From: an uncultured Flavobacteriales bacterium | Lineage (GTDB): Bacteria; Bacteroidota; Bacteroidia; Flavobacteriales; BACL11 | Direction of reading: 5' to 3' | DNA: 64,000 nucleotides | Assembly (NCBI GenBank): GCA_943788405.1 | Contig: CALSQD010000001.1 | Location: 457,200 to 521,199 of the forward strand | In this document: one piece after another, positions 15,066 to 15,215 of the stretch | How the letters are laid out: each line of letters starts with the position of its first letter | How positions within the stretch are numbered: position 1 is the stretch's first letter | The notes under the pieces: model-generated | Told to the model about the DNA's origin: nothing | Databases searched by the model: none | The model's input: the letters and a program-made list of their open reading frames with translations, nothing else | Program-made: the position numbers and the translations under genes

Positions 15066-15071
15066 TTGCTA

Positions 15072-15108
15072 TTGTTTATTTGTTTAACTGATTATTGGTT
15101 TAGTTGAT
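15072..15108 (-). repeat. 37-nt conserved core of an intercistronic structured element (copy 1, just upstream of pyrC)
   Basis: ttgtttatttgtttaactgattattggtttagttgat is the reverse complement of 21692..21728 with 36/37 identity. It pairs with 15142..15164. Confidence 0.9.
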
Positions 15109-15215
15109 GTTTTAGGATTGTTTATTTTCTCAAATAATCAAATCAACCTATAAACAAATAATCATTTTTGTATCTATTGTCTAAAAGCGTAGGGGTCTAA
15201 CTTCTAATATCTATT

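Follow-up and report, generated by a model that had tools for sequence, protein, structure and literature searches.

The stretch of DNA considered here (64 kb, 33.5% GC; hereafter the window) derives from an uncultured marine Flavobacteriales bacterium and contains, 6.6 kb apart, two copies of a small non-coding repeat, each situated between two co-directional genes. One copy separates a family-2 glycosyltransferase (GT2) gene from a gene for a pyrC-type dihydroorotase, and the other separates the gene of a TonB-dependent receptor from that of a secreted PLD-family protein (Table 1). A first-pass annotation of the window had pointed out that the two copies have the same orientation relative to their downstream gene and that both lie between co-directional genes; gene calls and domain assignments confirmed both statements. 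Comparison of the two junctions with those of related bacteria disclosed that the repeat, an AT-rich imperfect palindrome of ~100 nt, was recently inserted, only in this population, at two junctions that had formerly been minimal.

The annotation had built on a 37-mer at 15072-15108 (minus strand) that recurs at 21692-21728 (plus strand), and the two are indeed identical at 36 of 37 positions, a match that arose in none of 100 shuffles. The repeated core is thus real, but the extent of the repeat is larger than 37 nt: the two copies align without gaps over ~101 nt (15065-15165 versus 21635-21735) at ~80% identity, and 76 of the 93 positions of a 93-nt core are identical. The repeat unit as a whole measures ~100 nt and has a GC content of 22-23%. 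A profile search with nhmmer scored the two copies at E = 1e-24 and 5e-26, and a covariance model (R1) built from the two sequences scored them at 106 and 99 bits.

Each copy is an imperfect palindrome assembled from inverted copies of a 14-mer, TGATTATTTGTTTA. Eight of the ten matches to this 14-mer in the window (two mismatches at most) fall in the two spacers, and the other two lie within coding sequence. The 5' half of the copies holds one or two forward 14-mers (15151-15164 plus the partial 15131-15140; 21636-21649 plus 21652-21665), while the 3' half holds two adjacent reverse 14-mers (15089-15102 and 15073-15086; 21698-21711 and 21714-21727). The forward pair is spaced by 24 nt in the pyrC copy and the reverse pair by 16 nt in both copies; a third reverse 14-mer occurs in the PLD spacer at 21747-21760, 9 nt ahead of the ATG. 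Internal arms of 35 nt in the pyrC copy (15073-15107 and 15130-15164) are 74% complementary, i.e., they constitute near-terminal imperfect inverted repeats. The motif AAAC(A/G)AATAAACA sits 7-9 nt ahead of the downstream ATG in both copies, with the A-rich strand as the sense strand. The shared repeat also begins with an ATG that opens a mini-open reading frame (mini-ORF) overlapping the 5' arm, encoding MIICL and stop at 15165-15148 (minus strand) and MVIC and stop at 21635-21649 (plus strand); these mini-ORFs are probably chance occurrences in AT-rich sequence.

Table 1. Repeat-bearing spacers, their component features, and the flanking genes (window coordinates).
Feature	Position	Strand	Remarks
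GT2-pyrC spacer	15066..15215	-	150 nt; ~147 nt is insertion relative to the 3-nt spacer of relatives (GATAA-ACA/ATA-ATG)
pyrC copy of shared ~101-nt repeat	15065..15165	-	80% alignment; internal arms
Near-invariant 37-nt core, pyrC copy	15072..15108	-	ATCAAC, then reverse 14-mers TAAACCAATAATCA and TAAACAAATAAACA; ends 6 nt before ATG
Forward 14-mer TGATTATTTGTTTA (hairpin 5' arm)	15151..15164	-	partial second copy TGATTATTTG at 15131-15140
Hairpin 3' arm (ATCAAC + TAAACCAATAATCA)	15089..15108	-	ends 23 nt upstream of pyrC ATG
pyrC-specific 50 nt	15166..15215	-	absent from PLD copy; AATAGATA twice around short GC-richer piece TTAGACCCCTACGC
TonB receptor-PLD spacer	21627..21769	+	143 nt versus 17-38 nt, A/T-rich, in relatives
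PLD copy of shared repeat	21635..21735	+	homology with pyrC copy; 14-mer array
37-nt core, PLD copy	21692..21728	+	one A-to-G difference
Dihydroorotase (pyrC-type amidohydrolase), downstream of copy 1	13734..15065	-	Amidohydro_1; close homologues named dihydroorotase
Family-2 glycosyltransferase (GT2), upstream of copy 1	15216..15947	-	domain match
TonB-dependent receptor, upstream of copy 2	18954..21626	+	CarboxypepD_reg + Plug
Secreted PLD-family protein, downstream of copy 2	21770..23923	+	PLDc_2 + T9SS C-terminal sorting domain

Relatives were represented by contigs encoding PyrC homologues, chosen at graded identity. The contigs of the same population (L008-L012) carry both spacers with a sequence identical to the window, and a haplotype of 94% nucleotide identity (L046) keeps the 150-nt pyrC spacer with one substitution. 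PyrC identity in the other lineages amounts to 95% (L021), 94% (L013-15), 91% (L016-17), and 89% (L018-20). Gene order is the same throughout L013-L021, with an LTD protein, the TonB receptor, and a nuclease on one strand and acetyl-CoA synthetase, GT2, and pyrC on the other. In these lineages the GT2-pyrC gap is 3 nt (GATAA-ACA/ATA-ATG; for example, GT2 end 9997 and pyrC start 10001), and the gap between the TonB receptor and the next gene is 17-38 nt and A/T-rich. Spacers of 150 nt and 143 nt were therefore confined, among the lineages sampled, to the window's own population.

BLAST alignments of L021, L013, L016, and L018 to the window stop exactly at 15066/15215 and ~21630/21766, and a filled-site/empty-site polymorphism is thus seen at both otherwise syntenic junctions. 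Since the relatives combine short spacers with conserved synteny, both copies represent recent insertions, of ~147 nt and ~105-125 nt, respectively. These insertions postdate the split of the population from lineages with ~90% identical flanking DNA. Recent insertion at both junctions rules out an ancestral, conserved pyrC leader, and the conservation in relatives that the annotation had tied to a regulatory role was not observed, the element being absent outside the window's own population.

Within the population, L010-L012 are near-identical to the window except in three sharply bounded tracts (12000-12500, 13500-14500, and 17000-19000) with 3-20% differences, a mosaic typical of homologous recombination between related strains. 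A ~650-nt tract of L046 (14700-15350), centred on the pyrC insertion, is ~1% diverged, while its flanks have 5-17 differences per 100 nt. Recombination may have carried the insertion allele from one haplotype to another. Because the L046 spacer lies within this low-divergence tract, its single difference in 150 nt is not below the local background. Extra conservation of the element within populations was considered and set aside, as L010-L012 are near-clonal outside the recombination tracts and the L046 tract is local, so that these contigs provide no evidence either way.

Differences between the two copies are unevenly distributed, with 16 in the 56 columns of the 5' part and one in the 37 columns of the 3' part (Fisher p = 0.0018). 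A constraint driven by structure would be symmetric; the asymmetric pattern therefore points to one of three causes, namely constraint on the sequence of the 37-mer, recent gene conversion over a short tract, or an ambiguous register in the 5' half with its many repeats. Paired columns also differ less than unpaired ones (8/56 versus 8/20, p = 0.025), a contrast that is confounded with the conserved 3' block. In view of the asymmetry and the paired-column contrast, we retain a small probability for an acquired regulatory role.

The hairpin that had been predicted ahead of pyrC folds as described: the pyrC copy reaches a minimum free energy of -19 kcal/mol (z = -3.7), and none of 200 shuffles was as good. 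The extra copy of the 5' arm, proposed as a competitor for pairing, is likewise present (TGATTATTTG, 15131-15140). One distance required correction, as the 3' arm of the hairpin had been placed 6 nt before the pyrC ATG; the arm in fact reaches only to 15089, leaving 23 nt to the ATG at 15065, and it is the 37-mer that ends 6 nt away. The PLD copy alone did not fold significantly better than shuffles (z = -1.6). Aligned without gaps, it still accommodates the fold of the pyrC copy: 11 of the 12 positions in its outer stem can pair, and the two copies together have 89% of pair cells paired. A covariance model with a search for compensatory changes had been suggested as a check; the model does recover the two copies, but, with only two distinct sequences, there were 0 compensatory pairs and 2 one-sided changes, and the shuffle control was uninformative.

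To describe the accessibility of the start sites, positions -200 to +60 were folded with a partition function and the unpaired probability was averaged over -20 to +12. The predicted accessibility of the pyrC start was 0.59 in the filled allele versus 0.35-0.50 in four empty alleles, and that of the PLD start was 0.63 in the filled allele versus 0.63-0.87 in the empty alleles. As accessibility is not lowered, the insertion is not predicted to occlude initiation. Translation initiation in Flavobacteria relies on weakly structured mRNA and on adenines upstream of the start (A-3, for example) rather than on Shine-Dalgarno pairing (PMC6847099). Position -3 of pyrC is C in the filled allele and A in the empty alleles. 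In the filled allele, but not in the empty ones, the pyrC start codon lies within a perfect 4+4 mini-palindrome, TAGC-AAAT-GCTA (15060-15071, minus strand).

Both spacers were screened for the hallmarks of known regulators. A gathering-threshold scan of the window against Rfam returned one tRNA elsewhere only, and relaxed scans of both spacers returned noise (E of at least 0.5), so that the Rfam search foreseen in the annotation produced no family match to either spacer. Simple scans of the spacers found no terminator-like site; a hairpin followed by TTTTTG occurs in the pyrC copy on the antisense strand alone, without conservation in the PLD copy, and a terminator reading was rejected. The -7 box of Bacteroidetes has the consensus TAnnTTTG, which occurs 98 times in the window overall and is absent from both strands of both spacers. 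A promoter reading was discarded for this reason, together with the lack of any excess of sigma-70-like sites in the spacers (simple scans); ATTATTTG near-matches have a spacing that is not conserved between the copies. A small protein was also discarded, as ORFs of at least 20 aa are absent from the pyrC spacer and limited to a 22-aa antisense ORF in the PLD spacer. The annotation's first proposal, a leader or attenuator occluding pyrC initiation and tying pyrC to the PLD gene by a nucleotide signal, is not supported by these data: the 3-nt junctions of relatives lack it, it has neither an Rfam match nor a terminator, its hairpin halts 23 nt upstream of the ATG, and accessibility of the start is not reduced.

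Taken together, the evidence supports an inserted palindromic repeat, for which a mobile family (MITE/ERIC/Correia-like) and a single local copy event both fit. We lean, with somewhat better than even confidence, towards the former, in which the element is a small palindromic insertion resembling a miniature inverted-repeat transposable element (MITE) or ERIC, lodged within two operons. The annotation's second proposal, a repeat resembling repetitive extragenic palindromic (REP) sequences or MITEs, fares accordingly: the presence/absence polymorphism with empty sites, the palindromic build, and the two diverged copies speak for it, whereas the copies found number only two and neither shows an evident target-site duplication.

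A non-autonomous element of this kind (MITE/ERIC/Correia type), small and palindromic, would have been copied into spacers rich in AT, and it would have persisted only at sites and in orientations harmless to the flanking genes. Its unstructured A-rich tail, AAAC(A/G)AATAAACA, could act as the leader for the downstream cistron that would be needed in Bacteroidia lacking Shine-Dalgarno signals. If only insertions supplying a usable A-rich leader survive, then the shared orientation of the two copies is explained without regulation. The insertion would be co-transcribed in the operon, and its stem-loop could form in the polycistronic mRNA. ERIC and Correia elements have described effects on mRNA processing and stability. 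Effects of the present element would likely be passive: GT2 and pyrC would lose their tight 3-nt stop-start junction, and the added intercistronic hairpin could modestly alter mRNA processing or stability. A ligand- or nucleotide-responsive switch would not be part of this mechanism.

Several results weigh against membership in a mobile family. Neither the nhmmer profile (--max) nor the covariance model with filters off found a third copy in the window; apart from the two copies, their hits were palindromic echoes of these on the reverse strand. The source contig DNA searched came to 82 kb, comprising the 64-kb window and ~9 kb beyond each end (L041, L043), and no third copy was found in these ~18 kb of same-contig extensions or in ~160 kb of the relatives' loci, where the covariance model was run with default filters. 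Exact words of the core were sought in 185,579 GTDB species genomes (20-mer), in JGI metagenomes (19-mer), and in IMG/VR (20-mer), and viral sequences were scanned three more times, with the tail, with the two arms and a gap between them, and with a pyrC-specific 23-mer. Exact-word scans miss diverged relatives, and the source genome did not turn up among the GTDB genomes scanned; within these bounds, the scans of GTDB, JGI, and IMG/VR gave chance matches without flank similarity, or none. The pyrC-specific 50 nt (15166-15215) had no match among viral contigs, and a BLAST comparison of the pyrC spacer with phage and plasmid records yielded nothing relevant, with one AT-rich chance match in Borrelia. 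Given chance-only matches and two known copies, a mobile family is therefore not demonstrated.

A clean target-site duplication was not seen at either junction on comparison with the empty-site sequences, and AATAG-type short repeats at the junctions are ambiguous in their AT-rich context. No transposase was found among the window genes by Pfam domains, and a literature search for MITE or REP families in Flavobacteria brought up nothing matching the element. The 6.6 kb between the copies suits a local copy event as well as transposition, and a near-invariant 3' 37-mer is not predicted by a purely neutral insertion.

We consider a one-off ectopic duplication or gene conversion without a mobile element possible, if rather unlikely. 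The palindrome would have arisen at one spacer, for example, through template-switch or quasi-palindrome expansion of the ancestral A/T spacer ahead of the nuclease gene, and ~100 nt would later have been copied once, through microhomology-mediated repair, into the nearby GT2-pyrC junction. Such an event matches the finding of two copies only, with none further in the 82 kb of source genome or the collection scans, and the failure to find either a target-site duplication or a transposase. At its centre, TAATTAAATATCAACTAAA, the PLD copy is similar to the spacer that L018 has in ancestral form at the PLD site, TAATTAAAATATCAATAAA (p ~0.009, uncorrected for 8 tests), which would fit an origin in situ and one ectopic copy thereafter. 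The ancestral pyrC junction found in L016 and L018, GATAAACAATG, matches the element tail ATAAACAAT exactly, a possible microhomology that is ambiguous in AT-rich DNA, and the mini-palindrome across the pyrC ATG can be added to this side. However, the closest empty relatives, L021 and L013, have different spacers (TAAAAAATAAAAGAAGAAA; GATAAATAATG, the latter being the reading of the pyrC junction), which makes the microhomology arguments weak. The copies are, moreover, only ~80% identical, yet younger than the split from a lineage with ~90% identical flanking DNA, a relationship that two members of an older family would fit at least as well, and the pyrC insertion includes an extra, unrelated 50 nt.

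Functional explanations have to account for the same distribution. A cis-regulatory RNA, in which the hairpin and the 37-mer form a leader co-regulating pyrC and the PLD nuclease via a nucleotide-related signal or a trans-acting factor, seems improbable to us; it could possibly operate by structure switching with the competing copy of the 5' arm, or by translation of the mini-ORF over that arm. The 37-mer is near-invariant while the 5' part is 29% diverged, paired columns carry fewer differences, both copies face their downstream gene in the same way, the 5' arm can pair alternatively with either of two reverse 14-mers, and a mini-ORF of 4-5 codons opens the shared region in both copies. Both genes relate to nucleotide supply as well, which is a plausible theme. 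Yet all relatives outside the population manage with a 3-nt junction and lack the element, no Rfam family or terminator was identified, and the 0 compensatory pairs come from two sequences that give no statistical power. The hairpin end lies 23 nt from an ATG whose predicted accessibility is not reduced, the PLD copy folds like shuffles with its core 41 nt from the ATG, and the paired/unpaired contrast is confounded by the conserved 3' block. Still less probable, and highly so, is a DNA-level array in which the three to five inverted 14-mers per site serve as operator/iteron-like sites for a transcription factor or nucleoid protein. The concentration of 14-mer matches in the two spacers, their spacing (24 nt for the forward pair of the pyrC copy, 16 nt for the reverse pair of both copies), and a pair of reverse copies conserved in sequence rather than structure would suit such an array. 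Against it, neither spacer has a promoter-like box for a bound factor to act on, both sites are operon-internal, no candidate regulator is encoded nearby, and repeated subterminal motifs are equally typical of transposon ends.

Read as a MITE/ERIC-like insertion, the element is one further example of small palindromic DNA inserted at operon junctions, real but fairly ordinary. It illustrates that a tight 3-nt stop-start junction tolerates a 150-nt insertion in the streamlined genome of a marine Flavobacteriales bacterium, and the filled and empty alleles that co-exist in related marine populations have some value as a natural experiment on how an intercistronic hairpin and a replaced leader affect expression of the downstream cistron in bacteria without Shine-Dalgarno signals. 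Its importance would be larger if the invariant 37-mer were a shared control site joining pyrimidine synthesis to a secreted nuclease. Specifically, the 37-mer, with or without the hairpin, could be a portable, recently acquired regulatory cassette read by one trans-acting factor (a protein or a small RNA), which we hold to be quite improbable. If true, the cassette would bring pyrC, for de novo pyrimidine synthesis, under common control with the secreted PLD nuclease beside the TonB receptor, a pair with a possible link to scavenging of extracellular DNA, and would do so within a single marine Flavobacteriales population. This would be an instance of regulon rewiring by a mobile intercistronic element in bacteria that lack Shine-Dalgarno signals.

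The genes around the PLD copy belong to a conserved block of an LTD/T9SS protein, a TonB receptor, and a secreted nuclease (window 17992-23923; L013-L015 1252-7241; L021 1410-7218). The last gene of this block is swapped among close lineages: the window, L016, and L018 have PLDc_2, L013-L015 have Endonuclease_1, and in L021 a PLD-like gene is divided between two ORFs. The position resembles a variable nuclease slot in what could be a locus for extracellular-DNA utilisation. Near pyrC, three tandem copies of a 21-nt unit, GATCACGATCATGCAGGAGAC, occur at 13603-13673 inside an ORF at 13333-13677 (plus strand). They encode a His/Asp-rich C-terminal repeat of a 114-aa protein without a Pfam match, the orthologue of which has 97-121 aa among relatives. 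Just past window position 1, L041 (1-9925) contains a complete kynurenine/tryptophan-degradation cluster that includes Trp dioxygenase, kynureninase, 3-HAO, an Amidohydro_2 protein, and an aldehyde dehydrogenase.

Known leaders of pyrimidine operons include PyrR-binding attenuators and leader-peptide attenuation of the pyrBI type. Like these leaders as generally described, the element is structured and precedes a gene of pyrimidine biosynthesis, allows alternative pairings, and includes a very small upstream ORF. It differs in having no Rfam match or terminator, in not being kept at orthologous loci, and in occurring also upstream of an unrelated nuclease gene. Among extragenic palindromes, REP elements are palindromes of 20-40 bp with GTAG/CGTC tags that are present in high copy and mobilised by RAYT transposases (PMC3733652). 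Like REP/BIME sequences, the element is an extragenic palindromic repeat, is flanked by co-directional genes, and could act as a hairpin in the mRNA. It stands apart from them with its ~100 nt, 22-23% GC, and two copies, and without a tagged, short, GC-rich palindrome. REPs are usually GC-rich and often accompanied by a RAYT gene, neither of which is seen for the element here.

Further parallels are offered by two other types of element. The Correia elements of Neisseria (NEMIS) generate a TA target-site duplication. In comparison with them and with MITEs in general, the present element has no evident target-site duplication, no parental insertion sequence or transposase found in the window, arms that are just 74% complementary, and two known copies. 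By their usual description, however, it shares with them a length of ~100-150 nt, a non-coding nature, inverted-repeat ends, a gene-adjacent and presumably co-transcribed position, and a filled/empty polymorphism. ERIC/IRU and YPAL-type elements are imperfect palindromes of ~100-130 nt in transcribed intergenic spacers, ERIC being present in tens to hundreds of copies. The element has no known sequence relationship to these, belongs to the phylum Bacteroidota, is known from two copies, and is set apart by its extreme AT-richness and reiterated 14-mer. In common with ERIC and YPAL as they are customarily described, it is an imperfect palindrome of similar size that lies within operon spacers, is present or absent between close relatives, and may form a long stem-loop in the mRNA.

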